Of a stretch of DNA of 39,563 nucleotides, positions 6,211 to 11,830 are shown piece by piece. The translations under genes and the position numbers were made by a program. Numbering within the stretch: position 1 is the stretch's first letter; every line of letters starts with the position of its first letter. The notes below the pieces were generated by a model. It did no database searches, had not been told where the DNA came from, and was given only the letters and a program-made list of their open reading frames with translations. Source of the stretch: an uncultured Gammaproteobacteria bacterium (lineage in GTDB: Bacteria > Patescibacteriota > Microgenomatia > Woykebacterales > RBG-16-39-9b); the NCBI GenBank assembly GCA_964367355.1, contig CAYIWY010000002.1, forward strand, positions 137,296 through 176,858, given 5' to 3'.

Positions 6211-6408
6211 TTAACTAACAACTGGTACGAGACTTCTGTGAACTGGTACCTCCTTTTCCCCTTCGTAAACCCGATAGCGCCTTGCAGTGGATCTGTCGAT
6301 GAAACACCTGAAACTGATGCCACCGTGAACGCCCTTACCATCGTCGCGAATGTCGTTCCCTTTCTCCCGTAGACTCTTGATCGTCTCCTGATCAGTAGTG
6401 ATTCGCAT
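6211..6408 (-). CDS. Small hypothetical protein (orphan unit)
   Basis: Likely start MRITTDQ at 6408 after SD GGGGAG; 65 aa; terminator follows. Confidence 0.6.
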   Translation of the reverse strand: MRITTDQETIKSLREKGNDIRDDGKGVHGGISFRCFIDRSTARRYRVYEGEKEVPVHRSLVPVVS

Positions 6409-6610
6409 TTCCACTCTCCCCGAACTCTTACCCCTTAAAAAACGAAAAACCACACATTTGTGTGGTTTAAAAATCAGTTGGTTGGACTGCTGAAAAGATT
6501 GGGCATCTTCATAATTTAACGATAAACTTAATCTTACGGCTTGGCAAGTCGCCAAAAAAGCTTGATTTATAAGGAAATTTTCAAGGCATTAAAATAGCAC
6601 CGAAGAAGTT

Positions 6611-7273
6611 TTATATAATCGAATTTATTCTAAGTACTTCTACAATCTCTTCGTGGATTTTATTTTTACTTTTCAACTTGCCTTTTCCGTCAATGCAATT
6701 TATTACCAACCAGTTTTTATCACGGCTTGCCATTTTTAAATAAACTTTTCTAGCTTCTTCCATATAGGCTGCTTCAGTCTCATGAATATCTTTCTTGCGG
6801 GGAATTTTTTTAAGTAATTGAAAGGAAGCACTAACTGGCATATCCAACAAAATGACGAAGTCTTCCCTGGGCATTTTATTAACTTTGTAATCCAGTTCGT
6901 CAAGCCAATGTAAAAACTCATCTCTTTTTGGCTCGATCATCTTGGCAGCTTGGTGAGCTTTGTTACTCGGAGCATAACGGTCGCAAATAATTATTTTACC
7001 TTCATTTAAATCATCAAAAAGTTCTTCCTTTACCGTAACTCTGTCCATGGCATAAGCCAAGGAAATTAAATAAGGAGAGACCTCACTAATTGTCCCAAAT
7101 TCGCCACGTAAAAATTTGGTAATGGTTTTTCCATGAAAAGTTTTCTGGTACTGCGGAAATTTGTAATAAGAAAACTTCTTTTTGTTTTTAGTTAAATAAG
7201 CTGTCAGGAGTTTGACCTGAGTACTTTTCCCAGTTCCGTCAGTTCCTTCAAAATCAATTATTTTTCCATGCAT
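6611..7273 (-). CDS. tmk: Thymidylate kinase
   Basis: P-loop FEGTDGTGKST, FP.Y, AYAMDR, ICDRY..SN.AHQ. Confidence 0.93.
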   Translation of the reverse strand: MHGKIIDFEGTDGTGKSTQVKLLTAYLTKNKKKFSYYKFPQYQKTFHGKTITKFLRGEFGTISEVSPYLISLAYAMDRVTVKEELFDDLNEGKIIICDRYAPSNKAHQAAKMIEPKRDEFLHWLDELDYKVNKMPREDFVILLDMPVSASFQLLKKIPRKKDIHETEAAYMEEARKVYLKMASRDKNWLVINCIDGKGKLKSKNKIHEEIVEVLRINSII

Positions 7274-7300
7274 AGGTTAATAATATACTATAAGTTGAAT

Positions 7301-7346
7301 AAAAAGAAAAACCTAGATCTGCATTTCAGCCGAACTAGGTTTTTTT
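7301..7346. terminator. Terminator hairpin (T tracts on both strands)
   Basis: AAAAACCTAG...CTAGGTTTTT. Confidence 0.65.
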
Positions 7347-7356
7347 AGTCGAAGAG

Positions 7357-7581
7357 CTAAAATCCATCAGAGCCCTCATCACCAATCACAAAAACGGTAG
7401 TTTCCTTGGTAAATCCATGATCTTCAAGAATTTCCCGAACCAACTGCGTGTAACCTATCTGACACATCTGGTCAATCACATCCTGAATTTCCTTACCCAC
7501 CAAACCAGTTTGGTTGCGCTTGAGATTTTCCAAAAGTTCGGTCAACTTCACACCCAACGCGACTGCCCGATCGAAATCCAT
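7357..7581 (-). CDS. Small hypothetical protein
   Basis: Likely start MDFDRA after AAGGGG; about 74 aa. Confidence 0.6.
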   Translation of the reverse strand: MDFDRAVALGVKLTELLENLKRNQTGLVGKEIQDVIDQMCQIGYTQLVREILEDHGFTKETTVFVIGDEGSDGF

Positions 7582-7597
7582 CTTTTCCCCTTTCACT

Positions 7598-7907
7598 TTA
7601 TTTTACTTTGCCAAGACGAATCACTTCGCCAGAAGGATAGTGAATTTCCTCAATAAAAAAGTTAATTACGTAACTTATGTCATCGAGATCAATTTTCTCA
7701 CCGCGAAGATGAACAACCTCTCCGCCCAAAAAACAAACATTTGGACAAATCAGAATTCGCTCGCGTTTTTTGAAATCGTAAAAATCATCATCGACTTCCA
7801 TAATCTCATACGGCACCAAACAACGATCACCACTCCAAGCATCGCTTTTTGGTCCAAGAACTCGGACAACTAAGTGCTTTCCTTTCTTGCAGATAGTTTT
7901 CTCCCAC
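7598..7907 (-). CDS. Cys/His-containing hypothetical protein, 5' end uncertain (possible 1-nt indel)
   Basis: The frame stays open upstream of 7819 to 7906 (EKTICKKGKHLVVRV...ICPNVC). A GTG at 7907 with SD GAGGTGG is one base out of frame. Confidence 0.5.
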
Positions 7908-7970
7908 TAAAGCACCACCTCATGTTGGTCATGCTTTTTCCTAAGATTTCCAAAATTTGAAAACCTTGGG

Positions 7971-8001
7971 AAAAACGACTTGGTTTATTACTCCAAGTCG
8001 T
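7971..8001 (-). terminator. Rho-independent terminator
   Basis: ACGACTTGG...CCAAGTCGT followed by TTTT. Confidence 0.7.
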
Positions 8002-8010
8002 CTTGCACCT

Positions 8011-8232
8011 TCACATGACACTAATTAACCCAGCAACAAAGGTTGGTAGCGAAACAAGAATACCAGCAAAAGCTACGATCATATTTAACGCAGCTCTGCG
8101 CCGGTAACCTCCAACAGACAACAAGTCGTCAGGCGAAATCTTCTTGCCCTGTGGACCCAGAACGAAGACACTGTAGTAACATGTCCACAGTCCGAGGATC
8201 AACCCAACCGAACCAAGAATTATGAAGATCAT
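8011..8232 (-). CDS. Small two-TM membrane protein (orphan unit)
   Basis: SD GGAGG before MIFIILG; two hydrophobic helices. Confidence 0.65.
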   Translation of the reverse strand: MIFIILGSVGLILGLWTCYYSVFVLGPQGKKISPDDLLSVGGYRRRAALNMIVAFAGILVSLPTFVAGLISVM

Positions 8233-8326
8233 TCCCTTTCCTCCCAAATTCAAAAGCATGAACTCTTTTGTTCACGTCATTTGTGTCCCATAGTTTAGCA
8301 TTTTATTTTGGAAAAATCAAGTTTTA

Positions 8327-9892
8327 TTAGTTTTTTACCTGGATAGATTTTTTTCCACGTTTAACATACCGAGTTGGGGCATCAATTTTCTCTTGAAAAT
8401 CTTGAGTAACTGCTTGCGAAGCAACATCAATCCGGCGGTCTTGTTTCCAATCGTGCAGATTGTAATTTAAAGCGATCTCAGCTTTTTGCAGTTCCGCTCC
8501 AAGATCGAGGGCGTGAAAGGACATTGAAATTAGTTCCCACTCACCGATTTGTTTAATGATTTCTTTGGCAGTTTTCCCATGAAACATCGTCAGTTCCGTC
8601 GCCATATCGTTGGTCATTAGTTTTGCCAGAATTAACTTATTCTCCCAGTCAATATCAATCAGCCAATTCCCCCGCGGGTCAATCTGGAAATGAAACCCTG
8701 GTTTATACTTGGCAGTTTCTTTGATATAGTATTTTTCGAGTAAATCGGCGGCCGTATTCCAATCATCAGCGTACATGTGGGCACTGTGGGTAATCATCGT
8801 CAACTTACCCATCGAGTAGCCGGCCGAGTCGGCAATTTCTTTTTGGAGTTTGCGGGCCGCAAACATATTGCGCGGCCAACCGTGGAACATATCTTGGGAC
8901 CGGACGTGGACGGTCATAAAGAACTTTTTGTCCTGTACCCCACCAATAATTTGGGTAATGCAAGGTGTATCGCCAGTATTGGCCGCCGCCCAATCAACCT
9001 TAACATTGTATAAAGAAGCGATCATTTTTTTGCTGTCCGGACGGTTTTGCAGCAGTTTTTTAATTTCTTCGATTTGGTTAATTCCTTCCATATTACGCAT
9101 CCGCTCGCCATAGTTGTAGGCCATTCCGGGGATACGTCGAGCAGTTAGCCATTCGGGGTAATAGGCTTTTAATTCATTTGTAGTAAATGGTAAATATTCA
9201 GGAAAATATTCATTTTCCGGATCTTCGTCGGTGACAACAGCGTTGAGGTTAAGGATTTCTTTTAATTCGTTAGTCGTGGCATAACGAGTGGATTTAACTC
9301 GACCATATTTTGTCACCATGTTGAGAACTTTTAACCAGAGGGCTGCCACCGTCGGCGCTTCAATCCGAAAACTCACTTGTTCGCTTGGCCAAGTGGTTAC
9401 CTTTTTCTCAGTCGCCGGAAAAATTTCAGCTTTAGCTCGGAAAGGTTTTTCTTTTTTAAATTTTTTAACAGCTGCAACAACTTCTTCTTTTGGTTTACCG
9501 CGCATGTCGACTAGTTCAACATTTTTACGAAAATCTTCTACAGCGTCTTTTGGAATTTCCGGCTCAATTTGTCCGGGTGCATCAATAATTTTGTAATCGT
9601 TGTCAATTCCTTTTTCCATAAAATTCCGTAGCGACGATCCAGAACCCGACATATCCGCTCCCCACATAACTAAATGGCGGATCGATGGGTTGGCCAAAAC
9701 ATTGCGCATCATGTGGTTGATCCCGGCTGGGCTGTAGAGGTTGCCAATGGCAGCGTAATCTTTTTTCTCAAGTGAATCTTTGATTACATCACGTTCTGTC
9801 CACAAAGTGACCACCCCAACTGATTGGTCCGGATCACCAACCCGCAAAATGTTTTCGTATAAAATCGGCCACTTTTCTGTTCTAGCTGCCAT
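8327..9892 (-). CDS. thyA: Thymidylate synthase fused to an N-terminal MtrA-like and a C-terminal DUF4346-like domain
   Basis: TS motifs YNYGER, TPC, RSQD..HGWPRN, SAHMY. N-terminus GINHMMRNVLANPSIRHL resembles MtrA. C-terminus has DPRG...HALDLGAELQKAE...QD. Confidence 0.85.
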   Translation of the reverse strand: MAARTEKWPILYENILRVGDPDQSVGVVTLWTERDVIKDSLEKKDYAAIGNLYSPAGINHMMRNVLANPSIRHLVMWGADMSGSGSSLRNFMEKGIDNDYKIIDAPGQIEPEIPKDAVEDFRKNVELVDMRGKPKEEVVAAVKKFKKEKPFRAKAEIFPATEKKVTTWPSEQVSFRIEAPTVAALWLKVLNMVTKYGRVKSTRYATTNELKEILNLNAVVTDEDPENEYFPEYLPFTTNELKAYYPEWLTARRIPGMAYNYGERMRNMEGINQIEEIKKLLQNRPDSKKMIASLYNVKVDWAAANTGDTPCITQIIGGVQDKKFFMTVHVRSQDMFHGWPRNMFAARKLQKEIADSAGYSMGKLTMITHSAHMYADDWNTAADLLEKYYIKETAKYKPGFHFQIDPRGNWLIDIDWENKLILAKLMTNDMATELTMFHGKTAKEIIKQIGEWELISMSFHALDLGAELQKAEIALNYNLHDWKQDRRIDVASQAVTQDFQEKIDAPTRYVKRGKKSIQVKN

Positions 9893-9894
9893 AA

Positions 9895-9950
9895 TTTCTT
9901 TAGCTTACGCTGCAAGGTGCAAGTTTGGTGCTACCTTTCAAAAGGTAGCT
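9895..9950. repeat. Truncated copy of the structured intergenic repeat
   Basis: TAGC...CAAGGTGCAAGTTTGGT plus the hairpin GCTACCTTTCAAAAGGTAGC; aligns with 1276-1323 and 4617-4671. Confidence 0.55.
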
Positions 9951-9958
9951 AAAATAAT

Positions 9959-10447
9959 CTATTCTAGTTCTTCACAAAGTTTAGACTCTTCTAGTTTTTT
10001 GTGATCATAACGACTAGTTTGAACTTCAACTTCTTGGTCAACTTCCTCAAATATTAGTTGAGCGATTGCAAGGCCCGGCCTTGTTAACACAGGTTTGTTT
10101 GAAAGATTTTTCAAAGTAAAAAGCGGTTTCCCTGCAAAATTTGGTGCTAAAATATCAGCTTCAAAAGTACACAGTACCCCTAGTCGAGCTAAACTTGATC
10201 GTGGAACAATCCGAGCAATTAAATTAGCTGGCAATTCGATAAATTCCAAAGCATTAACCAAAATAAAATTATCGTTTGTTAAGTAGTAATTATTTAATGA
10301 CAACTCCTTGTTCTTTGCAGGATCTAGCGCAACCGAATCTAGGTGCAAATCAATCGAAACAGTACCAACTGAAGCTTCATCAAAAGGGTTAATTTTTATT
10401 TTCTTTTCCGTAATTAATTTTTCAATTGACTGTTTCGAAAGAATCAC
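9959..10447 (-). CDS. dCTP deaminase/dUTPase-family paralogue lacking the catalytic Asp and Glu
   Basis: MILS, SIDLHL, PRSSLARLG and IAQL are present. DPG..G...LE is replaced by APN..G...FT. Confidence 0.85.
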   Translation of the reverse strand: MILSKQSIEKLITEKKIKINPFDEASVGTVSIDLHLDSVALDPAKNKELSLNNYYLTNDNFILVNALEFIELPANLIARIVPRSSLARLGVLCTFEADILAPNFAGKPLFTLKNLSNKPVLTRPGLAIAQLIFEEVDQEVEVQTSRYDHKKLEESKLCEELE

Positions 10448-11071
10448 CTATTTAACCCTCACAGACTTTTTTCCGTGTTTAATATAACGAGGTTCTTCGC
10501 TACTCATTTCTTGTGAAATACGGCTAGCATCCGGGCTTTTTTGGTTGGCATATTTTGCATTCTTTCTCTTATTATAGGGATTATCCGATGGGCTAGAAAG
10601 TTCCTCAAAGGTAAAAGAGCAAATCTTCATTCCTGGGTAAAGAGCGACTGGTAAAACCCCAATGTTTCCTAATTCTAATACTGGTGTACCATCCCAACCA
10701 GGATCAAAACGAGCCGCAGTCGAATGAACGATTATTCCAATTCTACCTAACGAGCTCCGCCCTTCCAACCTGCCTAATAAATCATCGGCGATTTTTAAAC
10801 TTTCGGTTGTTGTGGCAAGACAAAATTCTCCTGGACGCATGATAAAAGCTTCTCCCGTGCTAACAACAATATCTTTCATAATTTCACTTGATAAACTTGG
10901 ATTTCTCGGATCGATGTAAGGGTATTTAGAATGGTTGAAAATTTTAAAAGTATTCCCAAGATGGAAATCTATTGAACAACTACCTAGTTGGTCTTCGTAA
11001 TTTGGTGCAGGTTTAATCGCAATTTTACCTTCAGTGATATTGCGGCGAATATCGTGGTCGGAAAGAATCAT
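10448..11071 (-). CDS. dcd: dCTP deaminase
   Basis: MILSD (ATG at 11071), EGRSSLGR, HSTA, FDPGW.G..VLE, KY..Q. Confidence 0.95.
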   Translation of the reverse strand: MILSDHDIRRNITEGKIAIKPAPNYEDQLGSCSIDFHLGNTFKIFNHSKYPYIDPRNPSLSSEIMKDIVVSTGEAFIMRPGEFCLATTTESLKIADDLLGRLEGRSSLGRIGIIVHSTAARFDPGWDGTPVLELGNIGVLPVALYPGMKICSFTFEELSSPSDNPYNKRKNAKYANQKSPDASRISQEMSSEEPRYIKHGKKSVRVK

Positions 11072-11166
11072 ATAGTTTGGACGGCCCTCCGATTCACCGG
11101 AGACCCCCTTTGCGTTAACACTATAACAGAGATAATTATAATTAAGAAAGTAGTTCAAAAGGTATC

Positions 11167-11202
11167 AAAAAAGGACTGTTGCAATTATTTACAACAGCCC
11201 TT
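11167..11202 (-). terminator. Rho-independent terminator
   Basis: GGGCTGTTGTAA...TTGCAACAGTCC-TTTTTT. Confidence 0.75.
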
Positions 11203-11210
11203 CGCGATTT

Positions 11211-11423
11211 CTACTCCATTTTCGCCTCTATTTTCGTTCGTTCTTCGACAACTACCTGATGAACTCTCTGTCTACTTACTTTAAAATGCTTCGCCAACCC
11301 AGACTGAAGACCAGTTCGCACACCCTCAACCATGCTCTCTTTTTGGAGAAGGTAGCGAACAGCGATCCGAAGTTTCTCCGTTCGCTTTGGATCCCGCTTC
11401 TTCACTAGTTCTTGCGTTACCAA
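11211..11423 (-). CDS. Small HTH protein (sigma region 4-like)
   Basis: QSGLAKHFKVSRQRVHQVV helix-turn-helix; SD GAGGAGG. Confidence 0.75.
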   Translation of the reverse strand: MVTQELVKKRDPKRTEKLRIAVRYLLQKESMVEGVRTGLQSGLAKHFKVSRQRVHQVVVEERTKIEAKME

Positions 11424-11711
11424 TTACACTCCCTCCTCGATTGACTTGAGGTGAACACATCGCTTTGCTGAAAGAAAACCACCCCCGTGCTCACAATCCT
11501 GAAGAACAAACGAGCAACGTTTGTGCATGTAGGCAAAATCCACTTTGCAGTTCTCACAAGTGGAAAAATGCTGCACAAATGGAACCATCGGCCCTGGAAG
11601 TAAGATTCCGTTCTCCTCCAGACGATTGATCGCTGAACAAACACTCCTTGCGTGAGCCCAAACCTCCTTACAATCTTCTACCTTGTCTAGGTCCGACACT
11701 TTTTTGGACAA
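11424..11711 (-). CDS. Zinc-binding anti-sigma (ZAS/zf-HC2)-like protein
   Basis: DCKEV...QHFSTCENC (HxxxCxxC) plus extra Cys/His residues; SD AAGGAG; stop abuts the HTH gene start. Confidence 0.65.
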   Translation of the reverse strand: MSKKVSDLDKVEDCKEVWAHARSVCSAINRLEENGILLPGPMVPFVQHFSTCENCKVDFAYMHKRCSFVLQDCEHGGGFLSAKRCVHLKSIEEGV

Positions 11712-11830
11712 GTCCTCACTCCTTAAAGACTATGTCCCGCCACCAGAACGTTCACTATGGATTATATCAGAGGTTGCAAGCCGCTTGGTCTTTGACAAAT
11801 ATTATAAGTTGCGCAATAATGCTTTTGCTT

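Follow-up and report, generated by a model that had tools for sequence, protein, structure and literature searches.

Why should a minimal, host-dependent bacterium keep a gene of the DCD (dCTP deaminase) fold that has lost its catalytic residues, placed directly between a complete dCTP deaminase gene and a thymidylate synthase gene? The question is raised by a 39,563-nt stretch of contig CAYIWY010000002.1 (assembly GCA_964367355.1), here called the window, from a Patescibacteria genome. On its minus strand, dcd1 (10448..11071) encodes a 207-aa protein that profile scores and alignment mark as a canonical E. coli-type (monofunctional-type) dCTP deaminase, and dcd2 (9959..10447) encodes a 162-aa DCD/dUTPase-fold paralog with a GTG start, recognized by profiles, alignment, and predicted fold. 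Judged by its sequence, Dcd2 represents an uncharacterized DCD-fold subfamily that lacks defining features of dCTP deaminases, dUTPases, and bifunctional dCTP deaminase-dUTPases (DCD-DUTs) alike. From the sequences, their conservation, the gene order, and the absence of other dUTPase-fold genes, we infer, tentatively and at somewhat less than even chances, that Dcd1 and Dcd2 co-assemble and form a composite site that would convert dCTP to dUMP. This is our leading, though unproven, reading.

Dcd1 itself is an unremarkable dCTP deaminase of the E. coli type. Its scores are 197.4 bits on TIGR02274 (EC 3.5.4.13; cut-off 92.8) and 148 bits on PF22769, and it aligns over its full length with E. coli Dcd (1xs1) at an E-value of 4.2e-46; the E-values rule out chance as the source of the family matches of Dcd1, Dcd2, and ThyA. 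Its motifs read VHSTA (His116), FDPGW (Asp123), VLELGN (Glu133), and ICSFTFE (Ser152), and it carries all the residues of the E. coli enzyme: Arg105/Ser106/Ser107, Arg110, His116, Asp123, Glu133, Tyr166, Lys173, and Gln177. Among these, Ser106, Arg110, His116, Asp123, and Glu133 are invariant in 14 orthologs and match E. coli Ser111, Arg115, His121, Asp128, and E138, so that Dcd1 belongs to TIGR02274 on score and on catalytic residues. At the motif-4 position, Dcd1 has Ser152, the E. coli enzyme Ala, and the DCD-DUTs of M. tuberculosis and B. halodurans Gln; Dcd1 thus holds the Glu and Asp of a bifunctional enzyme, with Ser152 instead of its Gln. The first-pass annotation of this DNA, made from the sequence alone, had pointed to this serine, and the alignment bears it out. 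It had also described the two genes as having lost complementary motifs, which does not hold: Dcd1 keeps every deaminase motif, and its missing Gln is the state of the whole subfamily, with Ser at this position in 111 of the 120 nearest homologs.

Dcd2 shares the fold and little of the catalytic apparatus. The PF22769 (DCD) profile gives it 97.7 bits and the PF00692 (dUTPase; cut-off 22) profile 38.7 bits, and it aligns with the M. tuberculosis DCD-DUT (2qlp) at an E-value of 1.6e-13. In that alignment, Thr94 (CTFEA) occupies the His site of motif 3, Ala101 (ILAPNF) the Asp site, and Thr111 (LFTLKN) the Glu site, within a remodeled motif 3 that also contains Asp98, Asn103, and Lys107-Pro108. 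Retained are SIDL (Asp33), PRSS (Arg83-Ser84-Ser85), Arg88, and IAQL (Gln130), together with a DCD-like C-terminal arm (Arg146-Tyr147, Lys151). The motif strings that had been read from both proteins at the outset were all correct on alignment to solved DCD enzymes. As a dCTP deaminase, Dcd2 falls short on score (90.3 bits on TIGR02274, under the 92.8 cut-off) and on the catalytic Glu and His, since positions 111 and 94 are both Thr in 65/65 homologs. As a trimeric dUTPase, it has the Asp of motif 1, the Arg-Ser-Ser of motif 2, and the Gln of motif 4, and lacks the catalytic Asp of motif 3 (Ala101); it scores only 32.7 bits on TIGR00576 (cut-off 102.55), though it passes PF00692. Its C-terminus (SRYDHKKLEESKLCEELE) is without the dUTPase motif V that is seen in the canonical dut of genome G153; according to an excerpt of PMC4827122, DCD and DCD-DUT enzymes do not have this motif either. 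The NF002598 profile of DCD-type archaeal dUTPases gives 32.7 bits (cut-off 130), with the motif-3 Asp again absent, and of the Glu, Asp, and Gln of a bifunctional DCD-DUT only the Gln is present. The AlphaFold model of Dcd2 has a mean predicted local distance difference test score (pLDDT) of 93.7, and its best structural matches are the M. tuberculosis DCD-DUT (template modeling (TM) score 0.80) and the archaeal dUTPase P45 (9ln0; target TM 0.86).

The remodeled motif is strongly conserved. A word-indexed search returned 66 Dcd2 homologs at 54–99% identity, and any name given to them is 'dCTP deaminase', an activity that the sequence does not support under the known mechanism; this label would be corrected. 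Across 65 homologs (in which the commonest residue of a column has a mean frequency of 0.79), the most conserved 11-residue segments center on residues 86–99, which run from motif 2 into the remodeled motif 3 (consensus TF[DE]ADIL[PA]PN[YF]xGKP..T.KN). Thr94, Ala97, Asp98, Leu100, Pro102, Asn103, Gly106, Pro108, Thr111, Lys113, Asn114, and Gln130 are found in all 65, and only one position of the block varies freely, that of the canonical Asp (position 101; Pro 52, Ala 8, Leu 2, and Asn 1 among the residues listed). The half-site residues Asp33, Ser85, Arg88, Gln130, and Tyr147 are invariant too, with Ser84 in 64/65 and Arg83 in 63/65.

The Dcd2 clade is narrow and conserved, and its members come from two families within a single Patescibacteria class. 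When 1.84 billion representatives were searched with a profile, only seven Dcd2 clusters reached E-values of 1e-30 or below, followed by a drop to about 1e-23, where generic DCD proteins start. The clade is present in 14/21 genomes of the window's order; in a class sample of 251 genomes, it occurs in the window's own genome, in 9/12 others of its family, and in 3/4 of a second family (f21), and was not found in any other family of that sample. Across the phylum, it occurs in 2/401 sampled genomes, and a search of genome contigs for loci like that of the window gave five, every one in genomes already found. On the tree, the clade forms a single branch (99% support by the Shimodaira–Hasegawa-like approximate likelihood ratio test, SH-aLRT), apart from Dcd1 and its E. 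coli-like relatives. Dcd2 is not a copy of Dcd1: with 27% identity between the two and this well-supported separation, a recent duplication of dcd1 is rejected in favor of an old, separate clade. The public labels of Dcd2 relatives vary (Woykebacteria, Saccharimonadales, 'bacterium', Nanoarchaeia archaeon); the taxon labels of these metagenome-assembled genomes are therefore inconsistent, as close relatives bear such different names.

The minus strand carries every gene of the region. The TAG of dcd1 (10450-10448) abuts the GTG of dcd2 (10447-10445), so that the minus strand reads GTG AGG GTT AAA TAG followed directly by GTG. Within the end of dcd1, a Shine–Dalgarno-like GAGG (10457..10460, minus strand, read from the sequence) lies 10–13 nt upstream of this GTG, which suggests a candidate translation signal. 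The start of dcd2 is fixed by its homologs, which begin with M[IV]LS at the same residue. Next comes thyA (8327..9892, minus strand), the sole thymidylate synthase gene of the genome; by domain profiles, its 521-aa product is a three-domain fusion with an MtrA-like domain (5-150), an archaeal-type ThyA domain (about 177-388), and DUF4346 (405-479). Coordinates and sequence thus agree with the first-pass annotation, which had placed the GTG directly after the TAG and thyA next.

Gene contexts in other genomes, read as fourteen-kb stretches, repeat this order. Dcd1 lies directly upstream of Dcd2, on the same strand, in 14/14 Dcd2-bearing genomes of the order; at 7/10 loci read, the pair either overlaps or has no more than 13 nt between its genes. 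In all 14 genomes, Dcd2 precedes thymidylate synthase, and two layouts were seen, one without and one with a third DCD-fold gene, dcd3. The layout dcd1-dcd2-three-domain thyA is that of the window and of G010, G016, G008, G005, and G001, and the layout dcd1-dcd2-dcd3-bacterial thyA that of G011, G017, G013, and G019 and, by coordinates, of G007, G015, and G020. Reduced or altered forms are dcd1-dcd3-thyA (G018), dcd1 with only a thyA fusion (G006), and dcd1-tmk-dcd3-thyA (G233). Dcd3 (179–180 aa) is a long-branched paralog distinct from Dcd2, scoring 74 bits on NF002598 (cut-off 130) and resembling archaeal DCD-type dUTPases. Its Asp site is occupied by Ala and its Glu site by Gly; PRST, a His in motif 4, and the arm YRGQWQGG are preserved, and the hairpin contains no acidic residue. 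At 6/6 loci read (L024 8767-9306 (-), L025 7927-8466 (-), L026 7784-8323 (-), L031 6589-7131 (-), L027 6809-7348 (+), and L165 4207-4746 (-)), Dcd3 clusters with a Dcd1, directly after Dcd2 or Dcd1 in five and with tmk between in one, and it always stands just before a bacterial-type ThyA. Dcd3 is a second, independent Asp-less family beside Dcd1.

How could an Asp-less protein take part in catalysis? In the mechanism that we favor, Dcd2 would derive from a DCD-type dUTPase lineage that has lost its own catalytic carboxylate, and it would depend on the co-translated, fully competent Dcd1, most likely within mixed trimers. At the interface, the Dcd1 hairpin (His116, Asp123, Glu133) would meet Ser84/Ser85, Arg88, Gln130, and the C-terminal arm of Dcd2. 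The resulting composite site would resemble that of bifunctional DCD-DUTs and could take dCTP to dUMP for the neighboring thymidylate synthase. The remodeled hairpin of Dcd2 would in turn face motifs 1 and 2 of Dcd1, forming a non-catalytic, probably nucleotide-binding site.

A modeled complex of two Dcd1 chains and one Dcd2 chain is consistent with this arrangement. Its median ipSAE (interaction prediction score from aligned errors) is 0.80 (runs 0.79, 0.83, and 0.80) versus 0.01 for the best of three controls, and the mark that it passes was reached by 58/80 solved complexes and 2/110 mismatched pairs, although the pass may reflect likeness only, because DCD homotrimers have been solved and the N-terminal strand MILS is common to all DCD proteins. 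The runs have at least 78% of their contacts in common, with a partner pLDDT of at least 77. In the model, Dcd2 is contacted by residues 116-121 and 123-125 of Dcd1, and its own residues 86-99 and 101-103 lie against Dcd1 residues 30-33 and 103-112. The geometry anticipated by the first-pass annotation, with motif 3 of one subunit facing motifs 1, 2, and 4 of its neighbor, is what the modeled 2:1 trimer displays; the predicted contacts reproduce the canonical trimer, and nothing obvious forbids a mixed one.

Other lines of evidence argue for co-assembly as well. The adjacency of dcd1 and dcd2 is strict and their coupling tight. Dcd2 retains exactly the half-site that a neighbor's hairpin would need. 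Loss of the carboxylate is confined to proteins encoded next to Dcd1 and, with Dcd3 included, would have happened in two independent instances. The motif-3 Asp is present in all four solved DCD-type dUTPases that were aligned (9ln0, 8y1w, 2yzj, and 9w59), which also counts in favor, as does the practical inactivity of Dut variants with Asn at this site (PMC5519681, PMC4827122). The window's genome (1.12 Mb, completeness 100%) contains one ribonucleotide reductase (RNR); matches over cut-off to a further dUTPase-fold gene, a canonical dut, ThyX, or thymidine kinase are absent. This extends to the order: the suggestion that genomes with the gene pair should lack dut fits 13/14 Dcd2-bearing genomes, which have no canonical dut or dUTPase-family match outside the dcd cluster. 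The exception is G009, with such a match on a 3.4-kb contig; G003, without Dcd2, has one too.

Against co-assembly, the complex model cannot separate a mixed trimer from two homotrimers. Dcd1 has lost nothing and should therefore be active as a homotrimer. A Ser-type Dcd1 is the sole dUTPase-superfamily gene in G006, G198, G154, and G098, in two of which it is directly followed by a ThyA fusion, so Dcd2 is not needed for the pathway there. Dcd2 relatives, for their part, are the only DCD-fold gene in three f21 genomes. Given these sole-gene cases (four for Dcd1, three for Dcd2 relatives), neither protein strictly needs the other. With Dcd2 an old clade with 27% identity to Dcd1, a mixed assembly would have had to arise anew, and the strong conservation of the remodeled motif 3, the most conserved stretch of Dcd2, is not something that a mere half-site donor would require. 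A deciding role of the motif-4 Gln in bifunctionality is general background joined to a few local examples and not a tested rule. Finally, dUTP could be removed by two small MazG-like pyrophosphatases of the same genome, one of 114 aa (contig C8, L008 2607-2951), near a 148-aa cytidine-deaminase-like protein with a His-type zinc site (L008 1458-1904), and one of 103 aa beside ruvC (contig C2, L010 1474-1785). The cytidine-deaminase-like and MazG-like genes are possible alternative routes for the clearance of dUTP or dCTP.

Two further layouts bear on the motif-4 position. In G153, a Ser-type Dcd gene is directly followed by a canonical five-motif dut in the slot of Dcd2 (L167 4374-5453), and in G043 a Gln-type DCD gene is directly followed by ThyX and Tmk genes (L168 4577-6489). 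Both are compatible with the view that enzymes with a motif-4 Gln need no separate dUTPase; the cases are few.

The alternative that survives best, which we consider possible though doubtful, is that Dcd2 is a stand-alone homotrimeric dUTP diphosphatase, or another dNTP pyrophosphatase, with its catalytic base moved from position 101 to Asp98. It would then supply the dUTPase step that a monofunctional Dcd1 leaves open ahead of ThyA, and a canonical dut does occupy this slot in G153. The deeper members of the clade lend this substance, as the clade functions without Dcd1 in f21. There, in three genomes, the Dcd2-like gene is the only one of the DCD fold and lies between an ATP-cone RNR and an S-adenosylmethionine-dependent methyltransferase (L042 3449-6860, L043 1504-4918, L041 1194-4644), with the ThyA fusion elsewhere. 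In the f21 subclade (ii) and its sister P0073, Glu101 is present in 9/9, position 98 is His or Gln, and the deaminase Glu is missing. The window's protein belongs to the crown group, in which Asp98 is found in 65/65 and position 101 is not acidic. The Dcd2 of G005/P0070 has Asp98 and Glu101 together, and that of G001, with its subclade (iii), has Glu98, Gln or His at 101, and a retained Glu111. Every member seen therefore has a carboxylate at 98 or 101.

This pattern can be read in two ways, each resting on two or three independent events. In reading (a), the carboxylate at 101, kept in the stand-alone f21 proteins and lost in Dcd1-adjacent proteins at 9/10 loci, would have been lost only beside a complete Dcd1, which fits dependence on Dcd1. 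In reading (b), the constant presence of a carboxylate at 98 or 101 fits a relocated base. Dcd3, which shows the same Asp loss without any acid in its hairpin and is always found beside Dcd1, favors reading (a) and speaks against relocation. For a moved base, one can further cite that the remodeled motif 3 is the most conserved part of Dcd2, that residue 98 is among the interface (cleft) contacts of the model and residue 100 is not, that the PF00692 score exceeds its cut-off, and that Thr111 is dUTPase-like and not deaminase-like. Against it, the f21 proteins have Asn in place of the motif-1 Asp. We know of no dUTPase that does without the motif-3 Asp. The 98/101 pattern, too, reflects only the two or three events just mentioned. 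Dut mutants with Asp changed to Asn are practically inactive although they still bind substrate, as reported in excerpts of PMC5519681 and PMC4827122, which argues against an enzyme lacking this residue.

A rather unlikely alternative makes Dcd2 a non-catalytic, nucleotide-binding pseudoenzyme that forms its own trimer and senses or holds a pyrimidine dNTP (e.g. dTTP or dUTP), regulating Dcd1 and/or ThyA, or handing substrate to them, without shared active sites. This would account for the conservation of the phosphate-binding residues and the C-terminal arm in the absence of both catalytic residues, for catalytic positions that differ between subclades, and for a pathway that can run without Dcd2, as the Dcd1-only genomes show. 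In addition, Dcd2 residues 94–99 align with the stretch around E. coli Ala124 and M. tuberculosis Ala115, which corresponds to the loop that shifts when dTTP inhibits these enzymes. Yet a regulator would not be expected to stand as a genome's sole DCD-fold protein, which is the situation in f21, and literature searches for a cellular pseudo-dUTPase returned viral matches only. That Dcd2 is a decaying, functionless relic of a duplicated dcd is very improbable: its canonical catalytic residues are indeed lost, but the frame is intact in all 14 genomes, 66 homologs exist with many residues 100% conserved, the model pLDDT is 93.7, and the duplication is not recent, so that the conservation data exclude a decaying pseudogene.

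A separate feature links Dcd1 to ThyA. Beyond the normal DCD C-terminal arm, Dcd1 carries an extra tail (RYIKHGKKSVRVK; 10451..10489, minus strand), and the ThyA fusion ends in a tail of the same motif (RYVKRGKKSIQVKN; 8330..8371, minus strand); the common basic peptide, read from the sequences, is RY[VI]K[HR]GKKS[VI].V. Six-frame translation of the complete genome shows the motif in no other protein, and a degenerate DNA pattern for it has 0.00 expected chance occurrences in the window. The tail is found on 79 of the 120 nearest Dcd1 homologs (consensus RY[VI]KHGKK[SNA][VI][RK][IVL]); the remaining 41 end in unspecific Lys/Arg-rich stretches. Both enzymes bear it in the window's genome (G000) and in G010, G016, G008, G005, and G006, neither does in G001, and in G017 and G013, which have a bacterial-type ThyA, only Dcd1 does. 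A metagenome scan with the degenerate pattern, which says nothing about the distribution of the tail, gave at least 80 matches, 30 of them within 16 residues of a stop and, among the matches listed, one (L097) that is a real ThyA-fusion tail. A role as a Dcd2-docking peptide is rejected, as G006 has both tails without Dcd2, and G001, G011, and G019 have Dcd2 without the tail; its absence from the confident contacts of the complex model is evidence neither way. The obvious guess is that the two enzymes, which belong to the same pathway, share a binding partner. Taken furthest, co-assembly would make Dcd1 and Dcd2 (with Dcd3 in sister genera) the first naturally hetero-oligomeric member of the dUTPase superfamily, with regulatory dead sites and with tails that tie Dcd1 and ThyA to a common partner in a dTMP 'metabolon'; this broader view we regard as unlikely.

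Downstream of thyA, on the same strand, lies tmk, the thymidylate kinase gene (6611..7273, minus strand; PF02223, 80.7 bits). The intervening ~1 kb (7274-8326) holds only small open reading frames (ORFs) on the operon strand, encoding 82 aa (8011-8259; hydrophobic), 73 aa (7598-7819), and 79 aa (7357-7596), all on the minus strand; a 119-aa plus-strand ORF (7514-7873) has no Pfam match. Scans of 6400-11800 for promoters and terminators gave 12 versus 11.1 and 9 versus 5.4 in shuffles; with no excess over shuffles, no operon boundary was set.

Enzymes of the dUTPase superfamily are textbook homotrimers with shared active sites, and to our knowledge no prozyme-like pair has been described among them. 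Our literature searches for cellular DCD-fold pseudoenzymes, natural dUTPase heterotrimers, or dcd pairs in the candidate phyla radiation found only engineered covalent heterotrimers and viral dUTPase-related proteins. A natural mixed trimer with composite sites, a relocated catalytic base, or a cellular pseudo-dUTPase would thus each, if true, be new for the superfamily, and any of these outcomes would explain how dUMP is supplied and uracil kept out of DNA in minimal, host-dependent bacteria.

Among known systems, E. coli Dcd (1xs1; TIGR02274) is the counterpart of Dcd1, with all the named catalytic and binding residues present and the motif-4 Gln absent, and Dcd1 differs from it by its 13-residue basic tail. 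Dcd2 shares its fold (TM 0.80–0.81) and lacks equivalents of His121, Asp128, and Glu138, as well as the 20-residue insertion after motif 1. By sequence and by structure, Dcd2 comes closest to the bifunctional DCD-DUTs (M. tuberculosis 2qlp/4a6a, B. halodurans 4xjc, M. jannaschii 1ogh), with which it shares motif 2 (SSLxRLG) and the motif-4 Gln. Their full residue set equals motif 3 of Dcd1 combined with motifs 1, 2, and 4 of Dcd2; in contrast to the pair, they are homo-oligomers with all residues in one chain, whereas neither Dcd1 nor Dcd2 has the full set. The DCD-type archaeal dUTPases (Pyrococcus P45 9ln0, Thermococcus pacificus 8y1w, Sulfolobus tokodaii 2zdc/2yzj) are of similar size to Dcd2 (about 155–170 aa) and, like it, lack the deaminase Glu and the P-loop motif V. 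The S. tokodaii enzyme has a motif-4 His, as do Dcd3 and some Dcd2 relatives. Unlike Dcd2, with its Ala or Pro, these dUTPases keep the motif-3 Asp (VDPGW, IDAGY). Active sites built from two diverged copies have precedents in the monomeric dUTPase of Epstein–Barr virus, in which one copy supplies motif 3 and the other motifs 1, 2, 4, and 5, and in tandem-domain DCD proteins (PF06559 + PF22569, e.g. Agrobacterium 2r9q). In those proteins a single chain holds both copies, whereas dcd1 and dcd2 are separate genes that differ in ancestry, and Dcd1 is still complete. A mixed Dcd1/Dcd2 trimer would also be comparable to the prozyme-type heteromers of trypanosomatids (S-adenosylmethionine decarboxylase, deoxyhypusine synthase), which are eukaryotic and of another fold, and in which a catalytically dead paralog joins an active one to form sites at their common interface.

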